Below are positions 36,628 through 53,591 of a stretch of DNA of 59,460 bases, in pieces. Within the stretch, counting starts at the first letter, position 1. The number at the start of each line of letters is the position of its first letter. The stretch is from a virus (Duplodnaviria > Caudoviricetes): IMG/VR virus record IMGVR_UViG_3300033148_005420, positions 1 to 59,460 of that record. One strand, given 5' to 3'. A program made the position numbers and the translations under genes. The notes under the pieces were generated by a model. It did no database searches. It saw only the letters and a list, made by a program, of their open reading frames with translations, and was not told the origin of the DNA.

Positions 36628-36912
36628 ATGGCATTAACAAAAGCAAATCTAGCTCAGGCTATCTACAAGAATCACCCCCACTTGACTAGATCCCAGGCTG
36701 CTGTAGCCGTGGAAGTTTTCCTGACCACGGCAAAAGAGGCCCTGATCGGCGGCGAAGACCTCCTTTTAAGTGGTTTTGGCAAGTTTAGCGTGAAGGATAA
36801 GAAACTCCGAAAGGGGCGCAATCCTCAAACCGGGGAAGATCTGATTCTAGACGCTCGGAGGGTGGTTACTTTTAAGCCTTCGGGGATTTTGCGGGGGCGG
36901 ATTAATGCGTGA
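36628..36912 (+). CDS. ihfA: Integration host factor alpha-like subunit
   Basis: MALTKA..., LLSGFGKFSVKDKKLRKGRNPQTGEDLILDARRVVTFKPSGILR is an IHF-alpha signature. Confidence 0.88.
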   Translation: MALTKANLAQAIYKNHPHLTRSQAAVAVEVFLTTAKEALIGGEDLLLSGFGKFSVKDKKLRKGRNPQTGEDLILDARRVVTFKPSGILRGRINA

Positions 36913-37309
36913 GGAGACGGCAGTCCTGATCTCATTATTGGTCTGTGTAGCTGTCCTGGCTGGCTATCTTAGCTTGTCGGGGAAATTATCAACCTGGATA
37001 GGAATAGAAATGTCTGTAGAAAGCTACGATTGTGACAAGTGCGGCGAAAACGGGGTGTATAGCGAGCATATCGCATCCTGCGAGAGATGTGGAAACAAGG
37101 TGCGCTCTAACTGTACAACCGTGAGGCCGGATGATCATCCTTTTATTCACCAGCTGGTGGATGACGGAGAGCAGCTAGAGAGCAAGTACTGCCCTTTTTG
37201 CAGTGGTGATTCAGTATCGGATTCCCAGCGGGTTGAGTTTCTGCTTGAGAAGTTTGAGGTTGATCCTGCCGACATGGATCGTGAAATTATAGCCAAGAGG
37301 AAAAAGTGA
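36905..37309 (+). CDS. Zn-finger protein with an N-terminal hydrophobic segment
   Basis: CDKC, CERC and CPFC motifs; lies between the IHF genes. Confidence 0.6.
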   Translation: MREETAVLISLLVCVAVLAGYLSLSGKLSTWIGIEMSVESYDCDKCGENGVYSEHIASCERCGNKVRSNCTTVRPDDHPFIHQLVDDGEQLESKYCPFCSGDSVSDSQRVEFLLEKFEVDPADMDREIIAKRKK

Positions 37310-37596
37310 ATAAATCAGAATTAATCCAAGAAATGGCCAAGCAAACTGGCCGCTTGGAGAAGGAAACAGCCGCTGTGGTAAATACGATCCTGGATACCAT
37401 GGCTCAGTCCCTGGCAGAAGGTAACGGCATTGAAATCCGTGGTTTCGGAAGCTTCTCTGTTAAAGAGTATGATGCTTATACTGGCCGAAATCCTAAGACT
37501 GGAGGGAAAGTCGAGGTTGGGGCTAAGAAACTCCCTGTTTTTAAGGTGGGGAAGGGGTTAATGGAAGCGGTTGATGCTGGGAGGAGATCAAAGTAA
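37306..37596 (+). CDS. ihfB: Integration host factor beta-like / HU-family subunit
   Basis: MNKSELI..., IEIRGFGSFSVKEYDAYTGRNPKTG...KKLPVFKVGK is an IHF-beta signature. Confidence 0.82.
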   Translation: MNKSELIQEMAKQTGRLEKETAAVVNTILDTMAQSLAEGNGIEIRGFGSFSVKEYDAYTGRNPKTGGKVEVGAKKLPVFKVGKGLMEAVDAGRRSK

Positions 37597-38263: not shown

Positions 38264-39043
38264 ATGCATGAATTAATCAAGGTGAAGGAAAGCAGTATTG
38301 GTGGTGAGCAGGTGAATTCTATTGATGCCCGACAGCTTCATGAGTTTTTGGGTAGCCGCAAAGACTTTTCAAATTGGGTAAAGGCCAAGGTTGTAAATAA
38401 TGTATTTTTCACGGAAGGTCAGGACTATATCTTGCTCACCCGATCGGGCGAGCAAACCGGCAGCGGTGGTCACAATAGAAAAGATTATGCGCTAACAATG
38501 GATACAGCTAAAAAAGTATCTATGGCCGAGCAGACCGAAGCCGGAAACAAGGCCCGTGATTATTTCCTTGAGTGTGAAAAAGTTGCCAAGGGCGGGCTGG
38601 CCCCTGCGGTCGGAAGTAAGAGGGAGGTGTTCGAGCTAGAACTGATTGGCTACGAGCACGCAGCGAGAATTCTCGACATTTCCCAAAACAGCCTGCTGGA
38701 CGGAGTTCATACCGTGTACGAAAACAACGGCGTTTCACCTGCTGCCCTGCCGCAATATACCGAAAAGGTTCGAGTGGTTTGTTCAGCGAAAGACCTGCTC
38801 AAAAAGAATAATTGCGGTGGAATGTCAACAATAGGGTTCAATAAGCTCTTAATCCGCATAGGATATCTTGAGACAAAGACCAGGTTAGGATCAAAAGACG
38901 TAATCAAGCCCTACAAGTCCATTACAGAAAAGGGTCTAAAATACGGGCAGAATGATGCTTTTAGAGGTTCATCTACCCAGACCCAGCCACATTGGTTTGA
39001 AGATACCTTTATGGAGCTTTACGCCCTCGCAACAGCGCAATAA
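38264..39043 (+). CDS. antA: AntA/AntB-family antirepressor with a KilAC-like C-terminus
   Basis: IDARQLHEFLGSRKDFSNWVK...F.EGQDY...GGHNRKDYALTMDTAKKVSM.E....G..ARDYFLECEK; C-terminal ITEKGLKYGQN. Confidence 0.9.
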   Translation: MHELIKVKESSIGGEQVNSIDARQLHEFLGSRKDFSNWVKAKVVNNVFFTEGQDYILLTRSGEQTGSGGHNRKDYALTMDTAKKVSMAEQTEAGNKARDYFLECEKVAKGGLAPAVGSKREVFELELIGYEHAARILDISQNSLLDGVHTVYENNGVSPAALPQYTEKVRVVCSAKDLLKKNNCGGMSTIGFNKLLIRIGYLETKTRLGSKDVIKPYKSITEKGLKYGQNDAFRGSSTQTQPHWFEDTFMELYALATAQ

Positions 39044-39097
39044 TAACTCAGCACAAAACCACCTAGGTATCACGCAATGCCCAGGTGGTTCAAGAAA

Positions 39098-39601
39098 TCA
39101 CTCCCCACCATACCGTTTCCCATATTCCTTGTCCAGGATGAGCAACCCAGGCGGAACCTTCTCCCCTGCATGATCCATGGCTTGCCTAATCTCGTTAATA
39201 TCCTTCCAAAAATCAGCTTCAAGATCCATGAGGAACTTAGCGCAACCGTGCTCTCCGCCACCGGTCAGCTTCCCGACAGCCCCTTTAATAGCAACCAAAA
39301 CAGCGTTATCTTTCTTACTGATCATATCGAGTACCGCCCCGGCTGTCCATCCTTGCCCGGTTGCCGGAACGCTTTCAGTGGCTTGCAAAACAGGAATAAT
39401 GCCCCCGTGGTCGCAAATATGTTCGTAAATCTTACCAGCATACTCCCGGCGTTCCTTTGCCTCAACACAGGCCATAGCGGAAAGTCCAGGGGCATACTCT
39501 GACCGTAACCAGTAAGAGGCGGCTTGGCAATGCTTTGCGGCTCTGCTTAGCTCAGTGGCGACTATCAGTAACAGCCCGGCAGTTTGTTGATCCATGTTCA
39601 T
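39098..39601 (-). CDS. Ferritin-fold protein with a degenerate ferroxidase centre
   Basis: 167 aa; ASYW...PGL...EAKERREYAGKIYEHICDHGG and terminal GLLILDKEYGKR follow the FtnA pattern. Confidence 0.75.
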   Translation of the reverse strand: MNMDQQTAGLLLIVATELSRAAKHCQAASYWLRSEYAPGLSAMACVEAKERREYAGKIYEHICDHGGIIPVLQATESVPATGQGWTAGAVLDMISKKDNAVLVAIKGAVGKLTGGGEHGCAKFLMDLEADFWKDINEIRQAMDHAGEKVPPGLLILDKEYGKRYGGE

Positions 39602-39602
39602 G

Positions 39603-39824
39603 CTATTTCCCTTTCTTTTTTAGGCAAAATTCAATCACCTCGTCAATATTATCAACAAACCATTCGGCTGTAATTCCAGAGACAATCAGCTTGCATACCG
39701 AAACAATCCAAATTTTCAACATCCCGGACATTGTGCCTGAGTAATGCTTGTCTGCGGCTTTGTCTAAGATTTTTTTATATTTAGGAAGCAGTGAACACCA
39801 CACCTTGTTGGTCTGTTTTTTCAA
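39603..39824 (-). CDS. Small RHH-like DNA-binding protein
   Basis: KVWCSLLPKYKKILDKAADKHYSGTMSGMLKIWI; GGGGAG RBS before TTG. Confidence 0.5.
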   Translation of the reverse strand: MKKQTNKVWCSLLPKYKKILDKAADKHYSGTMSGMLKIWIVSVCKLIVSGITAEWFVDNIDEVIEFCLKKKGK

Positions 39825-39889: not shown

Positions 39890-40972
39890 TTATCCTGGTT
39901 CAGTTGCTGGCTCTGGCACTGGATCAGTTTCCGGCACTGGATCAAGCTCAATTAAAGGTTCAACCAAAGGTTCTGGCTCTGGCTCCGGTTCTGGTTTCGA
40001 TTCAACTACCGGCTGAGGACATGGCCCCAAGGTATCGCCATGACCATAGTGGGTTTCAAGGGCATTAACGCTCACAGAGATGTCTTCGCCATTGTGGCAT
40101 AAGTCAACCTTTTTTGGCTCCTCTCCACTTCCATCATCTTCGCCGCCGATGATATCAATATCAATATTGATATCGTTATCATTGGTGTTATCGTTGTTAA
40201 GTTCGTTGTTCAGCTCCGTGTCCGCTGTATCATCATAACAACCACGGGTGCCGAATCCTGCATTACTGCTTTTGCCTACCGGTGGCACGGTGTCACCGCT
40301 CCCGGCGAGAACACCTTCAGGGGGGCTACCTGCCGCCCCCCGTCCCCCGCCGCCTCAGTGGTGGCCGTGGTGGCCGTTATCACGCAGATCATTGAGTAAT
40401 TCAAGGCGTTCGACCTTCCGCTCTGCCCGATCAAGGTCACGGGTAATAGCACGGCCCTCGGAAGCTTTAATCTCTGCCAAAACCTCTGCCTTGTCTTCAG
40501 CAGCCTGTAATTGCAACTTACAGCAGCACTTATCAGACTCTCGGGCGTTTGCGTTAATTTGCGCTACAAGAGCAGCATGTTGGTCAGCGCCTCGTAATTC
40601 TGATCGAAACTGGTTATCACTCGCACGGTTACCGGTTTCGTTGATATTATCACAGATTTTTCCGTGACCATCAACAACGAGATCAGCTATTCGTCCGGCA
40701 GAAATAGACCTCTGGATATTTTCAATCCCGGTGTTTCCAATTTCCCTATTGGCAAGGACATCAGCACGGATCACAGCAGGCCCGGCATAAGGAGCGAAAC
40801 CGCCATTGCCACCGCCTTCACCGCCACGACCAAGAAAGCTACCGTTTCCAGCACGTACAGTGTCAACCAGTTGAGCTAATCCAGATAAATCCATACTCAT
40901 ATCATTCCCTTTTGCTTTATTGTCACCTGTCATGTCGACAGGCGCTTCCTTTGCGGAATTTGCAGCGTTCAT
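39890..40972 (-). CDS. CCC/His-rich protein (205 aa to UGA) with an in-frame 154-codon extension; 360 aa if the UGA at codon 206 is decoded
   Basis: ORFs 40355-40972 and 39890-40288 share a frame and the 22 codons between them are open (GGGGRGAAGSPPEGVLAGSGDT). GAGGA RBS at 40972. The 205-aa part is well supported; the fusion is inferred. Confidence 0.6.
40320..40341 (-). promoter_or_regulatory. SECIS-like / readthrough hairpin
   Basis: mRNA GGGGGGC-GGCAGGUA-GCCCCCC starts 13 nt after the UGA at 40355-40357. Confidence 0.5.
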
Positions 40973-41384: not shown

Positions 41385-42020
41385 TTTGCCCCTCTTTCTG
41401 CTCAACTAACCGAAGATTCTTCAGCACGCTCTCGGTCAACAGTCCAATTTGGAGGTCGGAACCGCCATTCTCCAGCGTCTTGCGCAATTTGGTCACACAG
41501 GTTGCCATTGAGTTATATGAAGTTGCTGCATTCTTAAGCTGGGTGGTTAGGCCATCCTCACCGAGGAGAACCAGTCCTAATAGGTCTTCCAGTGGGGTAG
41601 GTTCGTCCTGGTCTTTAGGAGGAGCTATAAACCCATGGTTCGCTAGCCTTGTCCAGTCAAAACCAGACAGGGGTTCTTCTGGCTTGGCCCGTGCTGCCGC
41701 CTCGAATTTTGCCAGGGATAATTGCCGCTGCTTCCCCGTGCCCTTCGTAAGGTCAACATGACGGAACCTCACGAACCTCTCGGATCCATGAAGCAGGCTG
41801 TAAGAATATTCATCTACAATAATCGGCCCCCACACTCCGGTCGAGGGATTGCACATCAGTCCGACATCGGGGTCTTTCGGGTCGCCATTGGTATCAAGAA
41901 ACCGATTTTTGTAAATTTTGTAATCACTCCTTGCTGCTTTTATCTCGTCCTTCAGGAGTCCGGTTATGAATGCAAGTGATCCGGCTGTGGTTAGCGTGAT
42001 TAAACTAGCTGTATCCATAT
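41377..42020 (-). CDS. Hypothetical protein with an N-terminal transmembrane segment
   Basis: MDTASLITLTTAGSLAFITGLL; AGGAG RBS; start taken at ATG ~42020. Confidence 0.65.
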
Positions 42021-42823
42021 TAATTATTCTCCTTTGGTTCGAGGGCAACAATCTTGCGACCATTGTTTTCATCAGGAACAATCATTGAATTCTGAATAAC
42101 AGTCAAAGCTTCAGCGATACTATAAGTCCAATCGATATTGCGCTGTTGGGTAGTCACTTGGATAACAATCTGACCATTTCCGCAATCCATAGCTTTGGTA
42201 GATTTCATCCAGCCTTCTTTTTCGCTGGAGGCCTTGCAAAGGAGTTGAAACATGTCCCCGTTTCCGACTACCCGAATATCCTTGACGTTTTTCCGGGCTC
42301 CAGAGACCTCACTGTTGTGAAGGGTTTTAACACCTGTACCAACAGGTACATAGTTTTCGGAATAGTATTTAGGAGAAATATACCACTGGTCTTGCACGTT
42401 ATCTTCGGCATGGCAAATCATGCCTCCTTTAACCGGCGAACCATGCTCGCTTACCGTAATTCCGCCCAGATCCTCCCCTTCAGCATAAGGTCGCATCATA
42501 GTTACGCCCGTCTTGGAGTGGGGGATACTTGATCTTGTTTTGGGTGCTTTTGTTTCACATCTGGTGCTAACAGGCCGATAAGCCTCATCAGCCGGAGTCT
42601 TTGGACTCCAGGAAACATAACCATCTTTGTATCTCACCAAATAACCTTCTCCGTTATCTTTAATAGCATCATCCATGCAGATCTTGTGGGACATGTGCCG
42701 CTCTGCTTCTGTGGCGCTCATTGGCACTAAGTCCACAGTTTTAGTACCGATGTTTTTTACCCACGGAAGGTCATTAATAGCCAATACTTCTTCAGCTTCA
42801 CACATCTTTGCTTTTTCACTCAT
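42020..42823 (-). CDS. Three-module phage protein (candidate anti-defence concatemer)
   Basis: Module 1 IGTKTV...GYLVRYKDGYVSWSPK; module 2 MRPY..GEDL.GI.VS...GGMI...DQWY; module 3 KTLHNS.VSGARKNVKDI...GWMKSTKAM. Confidence 0.7.
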   Translation of the reverse strand: MSEKAKMCEAEEVLAINDLPWVKNIGTKTVDLVPMSATEAERHMSHKICMDDAIKDNGEGYLVRYKDGYVSWSPKTPADEAYRPVSTRCETKAPKTRSSIPHSKTGVTMMRPYAEGEDLGGITVSEHGSPVKGGMICHAEDNVQDQWYISPKYYSENYVPVGTGVKTLHNSEVSGARKNVKDIRVVGNGDMFQLLCKASSEKEGWMKSTKAMDCGNGQIVIQVTTQQRNIDWTYSIAEALTVIQNSMIVPDENNGRKIVALEPKENN

Positions 42824-42849: not shown

Positions 42850-43254
42850 TTAATTCTTTCTAAACCATGCAATACAAAGGGACATCATAGCAAGTATCAC
42901 TGACAGCGCAGAGCCAACTAATGCTTTTCTATCAGCAACACGTTGTTTGTCATTGGCGATATGGTTCCCGAGATCCATTGCCATTTTTTTTTTTTCGTGC
43001 TTGATAATCGCAACTTCTTCTTCAACACGAATAACCTCCTCACGGAGGGCATCCCCGACTTCCCAAAGATCCTGAATGTCTTTTTCAGCCCTCTCCATTC
43101 GTGGGGTCAGGGCAAGAAGTTCCTTTACATCTGCTCTGATCTCTGTGACCATTTCGTACATTAGGGTTTTCCAGTCCTGATTAGCAGCGCCAACGGCGGA
43201 AGGTTCGTGGAGTAAAAAAACACCAAACACTATACTGCATATGATTTTTTTCAT
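42850..43254 (-). CDS. Membrane protein (signal/TM, coiled coil, C-terminal TM); possible lysis protein
   Basis: Hydrophobic N- and C-termini flank a coiled coil; downstream of the tail fibre. Confidence 0.55.
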   Translation of the reverse strand: MKKIICSIVFGVFLLHEPSAVGAANQDWKTLMYEMVTEIRADVKELLALTPRMERAEKDIQDLWEVGDALREEVIRVEEEVAIIKHEKKKMAMDLGNHIANDKQRVADRKALVGSALSVILAMMSLCIAWFRKN

Positions 43255-47030: not shown

Positions 47031-50000
47031 TTACTTTTCGCCCCTTGCATAGCGGCTCATACCCCAGACGGCAAGCACCGGGTGCTTTGTTTGACCTGTA
47101 GACGCATCATACCATCCTTCAAGTGTTCTTTTTACTGGTTTGTAACCAACGCCTGTTCCGTAGGACAGCAAGGTAGCCGCAGAATCGGCCAGGGCCAACA
47201 ATGCTTCGCCGTCTTGATCCTCCACGATGTATCGCTTGCCGTCTTCAACCAATTCTGATAAGCTTTTCCCTATCTCTGTAACAGGGGAGTATGTAGGATT
47301 TTTGCCATAATGATACCCCTTCATGGTATTCCAAAGGCCTTCTGCTGTCTGTCCAATAAGGGGCATGCCCTTTGGCCCTGCCAGGACGATATCTCTCAAT
47401 AAGGTTTCTTTTAATCTTTCGTCGTCTTCATCATCTCCATGCCAAGCGCCCAAGCCACCTGCACCGATGACGGTAAAGATGCCCGGCAAGATAACCCCAA
47501 ACAGAGCAATCCTCTTGCTGGCTGACCTATAGTTCTTTTTTGGATCGGTTAGCAATGCCCTGAAGGAAGCCTGAAGCTGGTTTGTGTATAAAATATTACT
47601 GCTCAAAAACATCGTAAATAATTTGTTCCAACTCCCCCCCCGCTGAAAGTTAGTCTGGTTATAAATGGCCGAATCTTGCTGAGTTCTCCTGGCTGTCTTC
47701 TCGGTCAAGAAGTAAGCCTCTTCCGGGGTTTTTCCTTGGTCTTTGTAATACTTAAATACCGGGAAACTGCCGCCAATTACGCCCGCAGCGTCACCAATCC
47801 CGATAGGCAGCATCATCCAATCCGCAATATTTTTACTACCAGCAATGACGGCTTTGGTCTGCTTGGTTTTGGCAATTTTCATGTCTCGCTCAAAGCCCAG
47901 TTTCATGCGCCGGTCTATGAAATCCCAGTTTTTTACAAATTCCCGCACTTCTCTAGGGTGAGCCACGCCGTATGTAAAATTTTTAGCAAAAGCAGCAGAA
48001 GGGATATCCGCAGACATTGCCGGGATACTTGCCAATTGTTTGACAGGGGTAATCAGGGAGCCACCAAGCAAGGCGGTAGTCACGTTGGCACGGGCTTTGT
48101 CGGCCCAAGCGAAAGTGGTGCCACCTGGAACTTCAGCCATGTCTCTAAAGAAGAGCTTTAGCCCGTCCATGGTGTTTTTACCGTATTCGGCAATGATGCT
48201 AGACTGAACTTGGGGATCATTGAACGTGCCTGTGATAATCCCCATCGGCCCGGCCCACGCCTGGTAATGGGTCATACCCTTCATATGATCCATCATAACT
48301 TGGTCGGCATCCATAAGGCGGAAAGGCTGGTCCTCTTTTTCTATTTCCGAACTAGTTCCGTGCTTCAATCCTGCCTGCCTGGTGCGCTGAACACCAATAT
48401 CAAGACCGCCTGTTTCCCTGTGTAAGGGTACTTCGTTCGGGTTGTTCAGGATGCTGATTCCTTCGACATTCTGAATGACTTTCCCGGTATCTGCTTGAAG
48501 CTTGGGGTAAAATTCCTGCTGCTGCCAGTCTCCCCACTGTTTTTCTTCAGGGCTGAGGTAATTTTCTATATCTTTGAGGGTTTCCTCAGTCACGCCCATG
48601 GCATCCAGTCCAGATTGAGCCTCGTCAAAATTACTTAGCTGCCTGAGATATATCGCTTGACCAGGACCAATGTGGAAAGGTTCTTTCTTTTGCCCGGTCT
48701 GGGAATAACTGTAGACCTTATCTGTCGAGACTTCAGCCATTCGAGCCATGGCGGCCATCAGTTTCTTGCCAGAGCCAAACACCTCGGCTGCTTTGGTCTT
48801 AATAGTGTTCTCGACGATGGACAATTTTAACTGTTCTTCGCGTCTTGTTCCCCAAGCAGCAATGCCCTCAAACAGCTTCACAGTATCACTCTGAAGCATT
48901 CCTTTGCCTGATTTCCCCGCAATTTTGTTCAGGTAGAATCCAAGGATCATGTTGGAATTTTCTACATCAGTAACGAGCTTCTTGGCCCTGCCTGTCACCG
49001 TTTTTTCTTTCTCGGCAACCTGACTCATTTCGGCCCGAGAGTAATCTTTTGGATCCTGTTTACCTTGGACTTCCTGTCGAACCATCAAGGCGTTCTTATT
49101 GTTGAGTGCATTGCGCTGGTCTTGAATAACTCGCCAGGCGCCGGTACCGTTGGTTACTAGATCGTTTACAGCCTCTTTAGCACGGAGGATTTCAGCGTAT
49201 GACAACTTGCCAAAATCTCCAAAAACCGTGAGTAATTGCTTTTCAGAGTAATAATCCGCAAGATTTTCTTCGGCTTGAGCAATGCCCTCTTTGCTTGACT
49301 GAGGACTGCCGATTATTTCCTTTGATCGGTCAATTTTTTTATCAAGGGCTTCTTGCTGGTCAAGGATTGCCCCACGATCCATTTGTTTAGCTTTGCGGAT
49401 TAGACCCATGTCAGTCTTGAGATTCTTGCCCCTTTTACCCTGTCTTAGTTCAGGCTTGATTCTAGGCAATTGACTGCTACGGATTGTTTTGTCAAGATCC
49501 GCTTTTGTGGCTTCAAGCAGGGTGTCTTTCACTTTTTCAAACGCTCGTTTTTGTCGCTCGAATCCTGCTTTTGGATTAGAAATAATACCCAGAGCTTGTG
49601 TTAAATCGCCCTGAACCTCTTCTGGCACCAACCCTTGAAATGCTTCAAGGGTTTCCTGCTTCTTTTTCATGGATGCTACTGGGCTTCTAGATACATTTCT
49701 CAGAGCGTGATAAGCCCCAATAAATTCCCGTTCTTTTTTGATTTCGGCTTGCTTCTCTGCTGTAACTTTACTGACCGCTTCACCGACAGCTTTGCTCACC
49801 CTAGCCATGTAGGACTTGCCCTGCTCCGGCGTTGCCCCCGAAGTGGTTCCGCCTGGAGCGGTGGCGTTCAGGTTCTCGGTATTATTCAACCGCTGCTGAA
49901 TGGCTTCAGGGGTCTTTGGTAGGTCGGCAAGAGAAAACTTAACCTTGGTATCCGTTTTCTGTTTCCTGGGCTTAGTATCAGCCTTGATAGCACTCTGAGC

Positions 50001-53000
50001 CAGCATCTGAAGATCAGCAGTTGTCAGTCTGCTGGTAAAGTATTTCGGAAAGAATCCCTTATTGATCAAGAATTGCTTTATGGCAGCAAAAAGCTTTCGA
50101 ATTAAGCCATGCTCAGGAGACATCGATGCAAGCCGGGCCAATCCCTCTTCTGTGACCTGTTCAGCAGGGGTGCTGTCGGGCACCTTGGCAAAAGCCGCAT
50201 TGATGTCGCTATCTGCTCCTGTTCCAAGGCGACTCTCGAGCTGTTTAAGTATTCGCTTAAATACTTTGCCATCATTAAAACCAAGCTTGCGAGCATGGAC
50301 ACCGAGTTCATGGGTAAGCACAGTAAGTGCTTGACCTTTAGCTATATTCTCCTTGACCAGCCAAACCTTACCATCTGGAAAAGTAAGCCCTTCGATTCGT
50401 TGGCCATCTTTGGAATACTTTGCCTCTGCTTCAGCATCTTTTTTGACTGCGGACAGGGCTTGTTCATTACTAACCAGTTCAAAAGCCTTGCCCTGCTGAA
50501 GCTTTTGGACAACCAGTTGCCCAAGGCTCTCGTTAAGCTCGTCAAGGATGTTGGCCTGCTCAGCCTTGGGCAATACGCCAGCTGCTTTTGACAGCTTAAC
50601 TCGTTCGGCAATCTCTGCTTGGACACGGGCTTTCAGCTCTGCCGCCTTAGCTCTGGAGCCTTTGCCCTTGATTCCTCCAGCTTGTGCAGGAGTAACCCCA
50701 GCCGTTTTCAGCTCCCCAGGTTTAACTTTTTTCACAAACTCGGGTTTTTCCTTCAGCTCTTTGTATTTTTTTCCATACTCTGCTTTTGCTTCCTTGGATG
50801 CGAATACTTTCGCCGCAGGGGCTCTCTTTACGCTAAAGCTCGTATCTCCAGCCTCGTTCCGCCAGGTGTGCCCCACCCCCTTATCTTTCAGGTTATCGAC
50901 CAATTCAGCAAGCATTTCGGCTTTTATAACCTTTTCTTCAATGCTGTATTGGTATTGTTCCGAACTTAACTTAACATGTTCCGTAGCTGCTTGAAGCAAC
51001 GTCTTTGGCCCGTATTGCGATGCGTGGCTTTTTCCAACTTTTACGGGCTGGATAGATAGAGACCTTTTGCCGGGCTTAGGATCGTACTCCATTTGGCCTT
51101 CAGCCTTAAATTTGGCCTTAAGGGCTTCGGTAGCATCATCACCTTTTTGATTAAGGATGATTACTTCTGCACCTACTTCGGGTTTTTTAATGGTGTATGG
51201 TCGGCCTTCAAACTGGACTTCTATTTCTGCCTGACCTTCCTTATCAAAGAGCTTTACAAGGTGCTGTTTACTCTCCTTAACAGAAGCTTTAGCATTATTT
51301 AAGTTTTGTTTTATCGTAGCAGCTTCAGATACAATTTTTTCAGTATTTTTCGGAAGAATTTTCTTGTATTCAGAACTGTCCGTCAAGCGGGGCATTTCCT
51401 TTGGGTTGCGAAACTCTTCTTGAAATTCCTTTGGAGTAAAGTCTTTCAGGTATGTTCGTTCGCCTTCGACACTTAACCCCTCTTTGAGCACCCGTGTGCC
51501 TAATTCTTTTTCTCTAACAGGAGCCTTTTCAGCCAACTCGGCGGAAGTCCTTGAGCTGGGAAAACCTTTAACGAGACCCAGTATCTCTTCTACTTTTCCG
51601 CCAAGGCGGATGACAGGGATTTCTCTGCCCGGTGAATCAGTAAGGCCTTTTACCCATTGATGATGACCGTCGATCACATGGCCATCGTCAGATACCAGAA
51701 TTGCTCTCTCCGTGCCAGTATACTCCCTTGCCTTCTGGATTTTTTCAGGGGAGAATTCTTTCTGAGTCGGCTTTAACTCTGTAGGAAGAACGGTCGTCTT
51801 GGCATACTCGACACCTCTAGAACGAAGGTAGTTCGCTAATGCTCCACGGTCTTCGGACTTGACTTGAGGCATTTCGGCACGGGGGATATTCAGCGTTTCG
51901 GTTTCTTTGCCAAATTCAACCCACTCTTCTTTTGATTCAGCTTGTTCTTTTATCTTGGCGGTAGCGGGTGTTTCTGCCTCAGTGGTGGTTACTGGTTCAG
52001 CCTCGGTCGGCATGGTTGTCTTGCTCAGGTCACGAACGAATTCTTTCTGCTCTGGTGTTCGCTTCTCTGGAGAAATTTTATTGATCCGGTCAACTTCTTC
52101 AGTTGTCCATTTCTTGACTTTCTCTTGATCGGTTAATTCCTGGCCGATCACATCCTTTTTGCTTCCAAGTGCCTCTTTGGTAACCGGGGCCGCAGCAGTC
52201 CCGGCCAAGGTCTCATCAAGAACAGGCTCCGCACCAGCAGCTTGAACACCTCGCTGTATAGCCGATTCAGCAGTACTTGGCGGGGCCTGCTGCGGCTGAG
52301 TGAAGAAATCAACCACATCCTTGTTTTGCTTCAAGGCTGCCTGCTCTTCAGGGATGTTCCGCTGCTGAATCTCTTCAATACTTTCCTTTACCGCTTGAAA
52401 CTCCTCGGTTCCTGGCTGGATCTGGCCCTGCTGGACGGCAAAGCGAGCTTGGTCAAAAGCATCCACGGTATCGGCCTGGAGTTGTGCAGAAAACCCTTCT
52501 GGCTCGATGGTTACGCCGGGAGGTTGGTCGGGTTGGATCGGTTGAGCCCCTTCGGCTGCTCTTTGTGTTGGGCCGGACGGGGGTAGTTGTGGTTGTTGGG
52601 CTAAACCCCCGGCAACGTTTGCCCCAGCACCCATCAGGCCACCTGTCAGCACCGCTTGGGCAGCGGATTCAGGTACGCCGTCCATGAGATCTTTTCCGGT
52701 AGCAGCATTCTTCCAGACCTGCTCCTGCATCTCCTGAGGCATTTCCTCAAACAGCCCTTCAGATACACCGCCGTAAACAATGGCCTTGGCCACATTTGAT
52801 GGTTTCTTGAGGGACGAGCCCGCAAGTAAGGTATCAATATCCGCAATGCCGAGTTTGCCAGCTACCCGGCCACCCGCTGCGCTGAATATGCCTGTGCCTA
52901 TACCAGCGGCCAAGGCGGCAGCTGACTGGGCAGGAGAGAGTAATTTGTTGTCTGTTTGGCTCCGAATGTCTTCAGCCACAAGTCCAGCAGAAACCAAACC

Positions 53001-53591
53001 TTCTCCCATTGCTCCTGCAATAACCGGGGCGATCCGTGGGGCCAATGCCGTGATACCTCGTCCTGCTGCACCACCAGCCACCATTAAGGGGGCTGATTCA
53101 GCCGCAGCTCTGGCAATAGTTGACGGATGCTGTAATGCTGCCTTGAGTGTGGGAACAAAGCCTTTTGCTTCGGAAACTTGCTGTTCGGCGTACTGCTGAG
53201 CTGGGGATAACTGGCCCGCAAGGATCCTTTGAGTTTCTTCAGGTTTGTACCCTAATCGCTCGGTTAACTTGCCAAAGTGGCCACCTGTGGGAATGTCGAT
53301 CAGCCCTTGAGCTGCTTGGGGCAGAGCAACAGCTCCTTTTAATGCCGTTACTCCAATATCCCGAAGAGTGCCGCCAAAAGTTCGCTCAGGTTGCTGAGGT
53401 GGCGCAAATTGCTGGGGCTGCTCAGTCTGTAACGGCTGGACAGGTTGGGGCAAGGTGGCGGCGTACGACTGTCCGTATGCACGCTCAGAGGCTAAACCTT
53501 CCTGTGGGCCTGCTGGGAGGGGGGCAAAAGTCCTTATTGGCTGGACGGGCTGCTGAGGAAGGAATGTTTTTTTCTTTTTATTAATTGGCAT
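47031..53591 (-). CDS. Large polyvalent / DNA-ejection protein, 2186 aa
   Basis: N-terminal Ala/Gly hydrophobic region with EGLFEEMPQE; ParB-like ILVSDDGHVIDGHHQW; zincin-like THELGVH...EE; large helical C-terminus. Confidence 0.8.
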   Translation of the reverse strand: MPINKKKKTFLPQQPVQPIRTFAPLPAGPQEGLASERAYGQSYAATLPQPVQPLQTEQPQQFAPPQQPERTFGGTLRDIGVTALKGAVALPQAAQGLIDIPTGGHFGKLTERLGYKPEETQRILAGQLSPAQQYAEQQVSEAKGFVPTLKAALQHPSTIARAAAESAPLMVAGGAAGRGITALAPRIAPVIAGAMGEGLVSAGLVAEDIRSQTDNKLLSPAQSAAALAAGIGTGIFSAAGGRVAGKLGIADIDTLLAGSSLKKPSNVAKAIVYGGVSEGLFEEMPQEMQEQVWKNAATGKDLMDGVPESAAQAVLTGGLMGAGANVAGGLAQQPQLPPSGPTQRAAEGAQPIQPDQPPGVTIEPEGFSAQLQADTVDAFDQARFAVQQGQIQPGTEEFQAVKESIEEIQQRNIPEEQAALKQNKDVVDFFTQPQQAPPSTAESAIQRGVQAAGAEPVLDETLAGTAAAPVTKEALGSKKDVIGQELTDQEKVKKWTTEEVDRINKISPEKRTPEQKEFVRDLSKTTMPTEAEPVTTTEAETPATAKIKEQAESKEEWVEFGKETETLNIPRAEMPQVKSEDRGALANYLRSRGVEYAKTTVLPTELKPTQKEFSPEKIQKAREYTGTERAILVSDDGHVIDGHHQWVKGLTDSPGREIPVIRLGGKVEEILGLVKGFPSSRTSAELAEKAPVREKELGTRVLKEGLSVEGERTYLKDFTPKEFQEEFRNPKEMPRLTDSSEYKKILPKNTEKIVSEAATIKQNLNNAKASVKESKQHLVKLFDKEGQAEIEVQFEGRPYTIKKPEVGAEVIILNQKGDDATEALKAKFKAEGQMEYDPKPGKRSLSIQPVKVGKSHASQYGPKTLLQAATEHVKLSSEQYQYSIEEKVIKAEMLAELVDNLKDKGVGHTWRNEAGDTSFSVKRAPAAKVFASKEAKAEYGKKYKELKEKPEFVKKVKPGELKTAGVTPAQAGGIKGKGSRAKAAELKARVQAEIAERVKLSKAAGVLPKAEQANILDELNESLGQLVVQKLQQGKAFELVSNEQALSAVKKDAEAEAKYSKDGQRIEGLTFPDGKVWLVKENIAKGQALTVLTHELGVHARKLGFNDGKVFKRILKQLESRLGTGADSDINAAFAKVPDSTPAEQVTEEGLARLASMSPEHGLIRKLFAAIKQFLINKGFFPKYFTSRLTTADLQMLAQSAIKADTKPRKQKTDTKVKFSLADLPKTPEAIQQRLNNTENLNATAPGGTTSGATPEQGKSYMARVSKAVGEAVSKVTAEKQAEIKKEREFIGAYHALRNVSRSPVASMKKKQETLEAFQGLVPEEVQGDLTQALGIISNPKAGFERQKRAFEKVKDTLLEATKADLDKTIRSSQLPRIKPELRQGKRGKNLKTDMGLIRKAKQMDRGAILDQQEALDKKIDRSKEIIGSPQSSKEGIAQAEENLADYYSEKQLLTVFGDFGKLSYAEILRAKEAVNDLVTNGTGAWRVIQDQRNALNNKNALMVRQEVQGKQDPKDYSRAEMSQVAEKEKTVTGRAKKLVTDVENSNMILGFYLNKIAGKSGKGMLQSDTVKLFEGIAAWGTRREEQLKLSIVENTIKTKAAEVFGSGKKLMAAMARMAEVSTDKVYSYSQTGQKKEPFHIGPGQAIYLRQLSNFDEAQSGLDAMGVTEETLKDIENYLSPEEKQWGDWQQQEFYPKLQADTGKVIQNVEGISILNNPNEVPLHRETGGLDIGVQRTRQAGLKHGTSSEIEKEDQPFRLMDADQVMMDHMKGMTHYQAWAGPMGIITGTFNDPQVQSSIIAEYGKNTMDGLKLFFRDMAEVPGGTTFAWADKARANVTTALLGGSLITPVKQLASIPAMSADIPSAAFAKNFTYGVAHPREVREFVKNWDFIDRRMKLGFERDMKIAKTKQTKAVIAGSKNIADWMMLPIGIGDAAGVIGGSFPVFKYYKDQGKTPEEAYFLTEKTARRTQQDSAIYNQTNFQRGGSWNKLFTMFLSSNILYTNQLQASFRALLTDPKKNYRSASKRIALFGVILPGIFTVIGAGGLGAWHGDDEDDERLKETLLRDIVLAGPKGMPLIGQTAEGLWNTMKGYHYGKNPTYSPVTEIGKSLSELVEDGKRYIVEDQDGEALLALADSAATLLSYGTGVGYKPVKRTLEGWYDASTGQTKHPVLAVWGMSRYARGEK

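Follow-up and report, generated by a model that had tools for sequence, protein, structure and literature searches.

Background

What would a phage do with a ferritin that appears to have lost its ferroxidase centre? The question is raised by the gene for a 167-aa protein in a complete virus record of 59,460 bp with direct terminal repeats, which is the whole stretch of DNA analysed here and which we call the window. Non-catalytic ferritin subunits are, to our knowledge, regarded as a vertebrate speciality. It is already known that phages carry ferritin-fold genes, which are occasionally named as viral auxiliary genes, and a myxophage ferritin is mentioned in bioRxiv 10.64898/2026.09.14.751636. 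Our literature search, which covered few subscription journals, found no description of a phage ferritin without a ferroxidase centre. Within the same scope it found no Ftn from the phage or prokaryote world in which an ion pair replaces the di-iron centre while site C is frozen.

The phage and the place of the gene

The window encodes a terminase, a major head protein, head-closure and SU10-type adaptor proteins, and a DnaB helicase. It also encodes RecT/YqaJ recombination genes, a C5 methylase, two HU-like proteins and Ant/Rha regulators, and there are no tRNA genes in it. This gene content makes it a tailed phage; SU10 itself is a podovirus. A search of sequencing runs with the window returned one DNA run with 0.05 of the sampled words and listed no RNA run, a result that has no bearing on habitat or expression.

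The reading frame of the ferritin-like gene is exact at the limits given in Table 1. A long minus-strand operon, which starts at ~57.3 kb and includes a 2,186-aa protein and other large presumed virion genes, ends with this gene; it is the late/structural operon of the phage. The hairpin just past the gene is likely the terminator of this operon. It has a dG of -28 kcal/mol and a z of -2.9, 5 of 200 shuffles fold equally well, and it is absent from the list given by a consensus terminator scan.

Three other features of the window deserve mention in their own right. In PHROGs the 2,186-aa protein matches giant phage proteins, one of these matches being weak and DarB-like (antirestriction; E 2e-9), and it is probably an ejected or internal virion protein. 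The two HU/IHF-type genes are separate and less than 1 kb apart (PF00216, E 4e-25 and 3e-29, in the order of the table). The two proteins that precede the ferritin module, one with a hydrophobic N-terminal segment and one of 267-308 aa that falls in PHROGs of unknown function, are nearly identical over long stretches between the window and another IMG/VR contig, L003, which suggests that the two phages are close relatives. In this protein pair of L003 there is a stretch G-W-N-G-K-G-M-F-V that may be DUF2829-like.

Table 1. Positions of the features discussed, with counterparts in the other loci that carry a ferritin-like gene
Feature	Position	Strand	Remarks	Counterparts
HU/IHF-type gene	36628-36912	+		
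HU/IHF-type gene	37306-37596	+		
Ant gene	38264-39043	+	convergent with the minus-strand late operon	
Hairpin	39050..39091	-	12-bp outer stem, then U-run; begins 7 nt past the ferritin stop codon	
Ferritin-like gene	39098..39601	-	167 aa; protein ends ...GLLILDKEYGKRYGGE	
73-aa gene, family unknown	39603..39824	-	one base upstream of the ferritin start	
132-aa protein	39890..40288	-	Cys/His motif C-H-N-G ... H ... G-D-T-x-G-x-C-P; acidic Pro/Glu-rich tail	L003 7606-7944; L006 4299-4508
205-aa protein	40355..40972	-	Gly-rich N-terminal part, CCC motif, predicted coiled-coil-like segment, His-rich tail	L003 7003-7548; L004 7189-7713; L006 3735-4262
Protein with hydrophobic N-terminal segment	41377-42081	-	precedes the module	L003 6156-6788
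267-308-aa protein	42020-42823	-	PHROGs 9467/872; precedes the module	L003 5228-6154
Protein with weak PADLOC match	42850-43254			
2,186-aa protein	47031-53591	-		

A rare family of genuine ferritins

A search of 1.84 billion representative proteins with the ferritin-like protein gave 19 matches at E<=0.001. We dropped one of these, P0019 (817 aa), as a low-complexity repeat protein; the remaining matches are 159-171 aa long. The family alignment used below has 19 sequences, in which the top match, P0003, presumably the window's own cluster, is replaced by P0001. Each of the ten clusters that we looked up consists of 1-3 sequences. All of these come from metagenome assemblies, and none is functionally named (one member is labelled 'hypothetical protein'). 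Searching 50,697 phage records by tblastn with the protein gave no family match, only one chance-level alignment at E 0.2. FtnA-type genes are themselves rare in phages, with 6 in the same 50,697 records. No relatives came from scans of viral contigs with three queries, and in genome contigs the scan turned up nothing beyond two short, weak matches of 31 and 59 residues (L008 and L009), which we do not count as members. Neither of these scans yielded a prophage copy or a host assignment. The family is therefore very rare, rarer than prokaryotic Ftn by orders of magnitude, and among the sequences found it occurs only in metagenomes and phage contigs. Five distinct loci can be read: the window, two from IMG/VR (L003 and L004) and two from metagenomes (L005 and L006); L007 duplicates the L004 contig. 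A further 14 distant members are represented by protein sequences alone. L003 has an Ant gene and other neighbours in common with the window. In L004 a 929-aa protein without a family match, which we take for a tail protein, lies upstream of the ferritin-like gene.

The preliminary description of this gene had reported a 167-aa protein with the ferritin pattern, and Pfam, the PDB matches of the family profile and the predicted fold all agree with it. The product is a genuine ferritin homologue. The window protein matches PF00210 (Ferritin) with 27.8 bits against a gathering cut-off of 24.5, and 14 of the 19 family members match the same model individually at E<=0.01. A PDB search with the single sequence is marginal (best E 0.0096). 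The family profile reaches T. maritima ferritin at 9e-12, P. furiosus Ftn at 9e-8 and E. coli FtnA at 1e-6 (HMMER), while animal ferritins score far lower (7dlb, 6lij and 8w6m, for instance, at E 1e-3 to 5e-3). Aligned to E. coli FtnA by hhalign, the family profile has a probability of 92.8%. NCBIfam gave no match for the protein and the best PHROG match had an E of only 0.24.

The AF2 model of the protein has a pLDDT of 90.8 and a pTM of 0.86. It has the five helices A-E (5-34, 38-64, 87-114, 118-146 and 150-164) and the long crossover loop between B and C. A fold search had been named as a check, and it recovers the ferritin fold: Foldseek superposes the model on T. maritima ferritin 6ls0_A with a TM of 0.90 and an rmsd of 1.6 A over 165 columns. 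The best matches are Ftn ferritins at TM 0.84-0.90, and among the Foldseek matches listed all are named ferritin save one ferritin-MtrE chimera and the M. tuberculosis ferritin homologue BfrB. Taking the listed PDB profile and Foldseek matches together, all are named ferritin save a few chimeras or designed proteins and none is named Dps, an absence that excludes no relation. Phage Dps entries in BFVD align with the model at TM 0.5-0.7. BFVD has other phage ferritin-fold entries, among them a 'putative bacterial non-heme ferritin' of an uncultured marine phage (TM 0.86) and several Dps-like proteins. They have only 11-21% identity to the window protein.

The protein shares its fold, the long BC loop and helix E with the prokaryotic Ftn of T. 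maritima (1vlg, 1z4a, 6ls0), P. furiosus (2jd6) and E. coli (FtnA, 1eum). The helix-E motif G-L-x-x-[ILMF]-[DN]-x-x-[LY] is common to the family and FtnA. Identity to cellular ferritins is only 14-18%.

The ferroxidase centre has been remodelled

We fetched the true E. coli K-12 ftnA and ftnB sequences and checked that FtnA carries E17, Y24, H46, E49, E50, H53, E94, E126, Q127, E129 and E130. By hhalign and by MAFFT, residue n+1 of the query stands opposite residue n of FtnA through helices A and B, with W31 at W30 and G39 at G38. The HMMER profile alignment, which is to T. maritima ferritin and not to FtnA, shows the same correspondence from residue ~30 on. With a superposition on ferritin that is nearly free of gaps, a shift of register is improbable.

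In this register FtnA E17 is replaced by L18, Y24 by C25, E50 by R51 and H53 by Y54, which reproduces with the true FtnA sequence the four substitutions that had been claimed. H46 is replaced by E47, and E49 keeps its Glu as E50. Further along, K92-H93-E94 stands opposite K96-K97-D98, E126-Q127-H128-E129-E130 opposite D130-F131-W132-K133-D134, and L133 opposite E137. The preliminary description had read the first of these segments as EHE replaced by KKD; the KKD is right, but FtnA reads K-H-E there and not E-H-E. Its second segment, EQ..EE replaced by DFWKD, holds as given. Two of the ligands, E94 and E130, are conservatively kept as Asp (D98 and D134). Compared with the prokaryotic Ftn, then, the positions of E49, E94 and E130 stay acidic, whereas E17, H53 and Q127 of site A have become L, Y and F and the bridging E50 has become R. 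The full di-iron ligand set of EcFtnA (E17, E50, H53, E94, Q127 and E130) is not complete in the window protein, and none of the three alignment methods restores it.

The rest of the family shows that the loss of site A and the bridging Glu of the di-iron centre is a family trait and not decay. The E17 column is hydrophobic in 19/19 members, the Q127 column never holds Gln in any of the 19, and His is found in the H53 column of a single member. The E50 column has R in 14 members and L or M in 5; the Y24 column holds C, F or Y. The dismantled centre of the preliminary description is thus conserved across the family, with site A and the bridging Glu absent. Its further idea of a dead subunit was half right. 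The loss of the ferroxidase site stands, but the subunit does not look simply dead, as the adjacent carboxylates E47, E50, [DE]134 and E137 are invariant; remodelled is the better word. The Cys and His residues to which it had also pointed are not conserved across the family. We considered and rejected a new metal site built from the Cys and His of the window protein, none of these being conserved in the family.

The window protein is atypical in its own family at two otherwise conserved positions. It has R52 (codon ~39446-39448) where 16 of the 19 members have Trp and two have Tyr, and Ser19 where most members have Asp.

A probable ion pair in the former di-iron pocket

Positions 51 and 98 vary together without exception. 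R51 occurs with D98 in 14/14 members and L or M at 51 occurs with Y or Q at 98 in 5/5, and this second state is found both in P0012 and in the group P0016/17/18/20, hence in at least two separate lineages. In ferritins E50 and E94 bind the same iron, so both positions touch. Given that contact, the perfect covariation indicates an R51-D98 ion pair that would fill the former di-iron site.

The vertebrate L chain provides a likeness in its residues K58 and E103, which we take to be 62 and 107 in H numbering. The L chain has likewise lost its centre, and a basic-acidic pair occupies the same two positions: the K58-E103 salt bridge reported in place of ferroxidase activity there (PMC2603009), and here, judging by covariation, R51-D98. 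Cavity-facing carboxylates are kept in both. The two do not share this by common descent. The nearest relatives of the phage protein are bacterial and archaeal Ftn, so the resemblance to the L chain is convergent.

The carboxylates that remain

Strict invariance in the family is limited to G39, E47, E50, E137 and Y164; position 134 holds Asp or Glu in 19/19. The four acidic positions E47, E50, [DE]134 and E137 persist in the 5 members without R51, which argues that they are not retained merely to pair with or neutralise the Arg. They sit on helices B and D, where E137 follows D134 by one turn of helix D. Given the up-down-down-up arrangement of the bundle, we presume that E137 lies beside E47.

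The closest known counterpart is in the diatom ferritin PmFTN (3e6r and variants). PMC3663513 gives its site A as E15/E48/H51, its site B as E48/E94/E130 and a third site, C, toward the cavity as E44/E47/E130. The same source makes PmFTN Glu-44 equivalent to EcFtnA His-46 and describes a Glu there as peculiar to diatoms and cyanobacteria. By alignment, through H46, E49 and E130 of EcFtnA, the phage residues E47, E50 and [DE]134 correspond to E44, E47 and E130 of PmFTN. The difference is that in PmFTN the A/B ferroxidase centre next to site C is fully active, whereas the phage family would have only site C, with the extra invariant E137. Site C of Ftn is described as a mineral nucleation site in some cases (PMC8743623).

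Our case for a cluster of E47, E50, D134 and E137 and for the R51-D98 contact comes from homology to ferritin sites and from covariation. R51 stands at the site B position, ~3.5 A from site C in PmFTN (PMC3663513), and could compete with metal at site C. The family is also less acidic than FtnA (pI 5.3-7.7 vs 4.8), which fits a weaker mineralising surface.

The neighbouring genes

A gene for a protein of 72-74 aa adjoins the ferritin-like gene in 5/5 loci, upstream in the window and downstream in the other four. The spacing is always tight, with a gap of 1 nt in the window, 0 nt in L003 and 5 nt in L005, and overlaps of 4 nt in L004 and 1 nt in L006. The small proteins have 27-42% identity among themselves, and their family is about as rare as the ferritin-like one, with 5 clusters. 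Neither Pfam nor the PDB gave a sequence match for the 73-aa protein. Its AF2 model has a pLDDT of 68, and the best Z in a wide structural search was 3.7. Leads from the ESM Atlas all stayed below 0.9; among them was a ribbon-helix-helix cluster at 0.87, which is weak. This lead and the beta-helix-helix-like pattern suggest that the protein may be a small ribbon-helix-helix-type regulator. Complex prediction for the ferritin-like and 73-aa proteins scored 0.00 against a mark of 0.32, which is no verdict and speaks neither for nor against binding.

Farther upstream lie two proteins rich in Cys and His. Relatives of the 132-aa protein stand upstream of the ferritin-like gene in 3/5 loci including the window. 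These three share C-H-N-G, then A, H and G-D-T-x-G-x-C-P, with an acidic tail rich in Pro, Glu and Ala. The only Pfam matches of the 132-aa protein are weak, sub-threshold, low-complexity ones and none is at family level; from its motif it may be a small metal-binding domain. The Gly-rich/CCC protein, of 174-205 aa, is found at the same position in 4/5 loci, and the L005 contig ends before that position. Its CCC lies within the coiled-coil-like segment. The C-terminal end is His/Cys-rich, and three of the four copies have at least one His there. The 205-aa protein matched no family in Pfam or PHROG. PADLOC found no defence-family match for the ferritin-like gene and six of the seven neighbours tested; the protein at 42850-43254 had one weak match (E 0.0089) to a type I methyltransferase model.

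What the subunit may do

We believe, with roughly even confidence, that the product of the ferritin-like gene is a non-catalytic subunit of an Ftn-type ferritin cage, 'site-C-only', whose task is to bind or nucleate iron. The Arg-Asp pair would fill and stabilise the empty di-iron pocket, in the manner of the Lys-Glu salt bridge of vertebrate L chains. On the inner surface the invariant carboxylates would make up a metal site that corresponds to site C of diatom ferritin (E44, E47, E130), and this site would bind Fe(II)/Fe(III) and nucleate or buffer iron without enzymatic oxidation. The subunit would build a 24-mer, on its own or together with host ferritin. Encoded by the final gene of the structural operon, it would be produced late in infection, with the 73-aa protein dedicated to it. 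The likely benefit to the phage would be control of the labile iron pool of the infected cell. Two points count against an iron role of this kind. Family searches of the genes in the window recognised no further iron-dependent gene and no Fe-S enzyme gene, and a plain iron-storage role leaves the strict linkage to the 73-aa protein and the Cys/His-rich neighbours unexplained.

Loss of the catalytic site in 19/19 members is also what would be expected of a dominant-negative decoy, a subunit that co-assembles with Ftn or Bfr of the host, dilutes their ferroxidase centres and keeps or releases iron for the phage. Mixed cages are conceivable, given how near the fold and the helix-E motif are to those of cellular Ftn, and H/L heteropolymers are described as the norm in vertebrates (PMC6315955). 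We consider the idea unlikely nonetheless. At the level of identity to cellular ferritins given above, the compatibility of the interface with host ferritin is doubtful, and four invariant inner-surface carboxylates would be needless in a pure decoy.

An equally doubtful proposal would make the protein an Fe(II) reservoir like FtnB, a ferroxidase-poor ferritin whose iron could be mobilised during infection for the repair or assembly of Fe-S or other iron enzymes. FtnB of E. coli and Salmonella is a cellular Ftn paralogue that is also 167 aa long and also has a degenerate ferroxidase centre; in E. coli it has S, N, Q and Y in place of E49, E50, H53 and E94. FtnB thus shows that bacterial selection maintains Ftn paralogues whose ferroxidase centre has degenerated. 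A role of FtnB in Fe-S repair is said to have been found by Velayudhan et al. in 2007, and a Salmonella ftnB mutant is reported to be attenuated (PMC8264917). The substitution pattern, however, is not that of the phage protein: FtnB keeps E17 and Y24, loses E49, and has neither an R-D pair nor the E47/E50 pair. The family profile also aligns less well to FtnB (78.9% by hhalign) than to FtnA, which points to convergence rather than orthology. Orthology with FtnB is rejected on these two grounds, and the want of a recognised Fe-S enzyme gene in the phage tells against the reservoir as well.

The constant company of the 72-74-aa gene invites explanations in which iron is not the point. The ferritin shell or bundle could have been reused as a scaffold, a compartment or a platform for binding the 73-aa protein, the Cys/His-rich neighbours or another metal. 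The small gene has stayed next to the ferritin-like gene despite the low identity among its copies and the swapped order in the window, the two families are about equally rare, and the neighbours have conserved Cys/His motifs. This too we think improbable, since iron is bound in homologous ferritins by just the residues that are invariant here. The 73-aa protein, having no recognisable fold, may for its part simply be the small regulator suggested above, weak as that lead is. We are no more inclined to a wider version, in which the end of the late operon would be a self-contained metal-handling cassette. There the site-C-only cage subunit, a 73-aa partner that docks on it or regulates it and the two Cys/His-rich proteins would together sequester or supply iron, or a different metal, either inside the infected cell or within the particle, and would need no ferroxidase.

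Least probable is a cryptic ferroxidase at a relocated carboxylate site (E47/E50/D134/E137, perhaps with H24 or Y/H61): the family does have two invariant [DE]-x-x-E motifs on the adjacent helices B and D, and paired motifs of this type build the di-metal sites of the ferritin superfamily, but there is no conserved His ligand (H24 in 10/19, His at position 54 in 1/19) and no ligand from helix A or helix C apart from D98, itself paired with R51.

Conclusions

If the gene does encode a site-C-only subunit, this phage-borne and selected family would be a natural experiment on what site C does by itself, whether nucleation, transit or Fe(II) buffering. The same family bears on how viruses manipulate the iron of their hosts. 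For nanocage engineering its product would offer a cage that is compact, catalytically silent and probably very stable, and if the 73-aa neighbour proves to be its partner, that neighbour would be a new kind of ferritin accessory protein.
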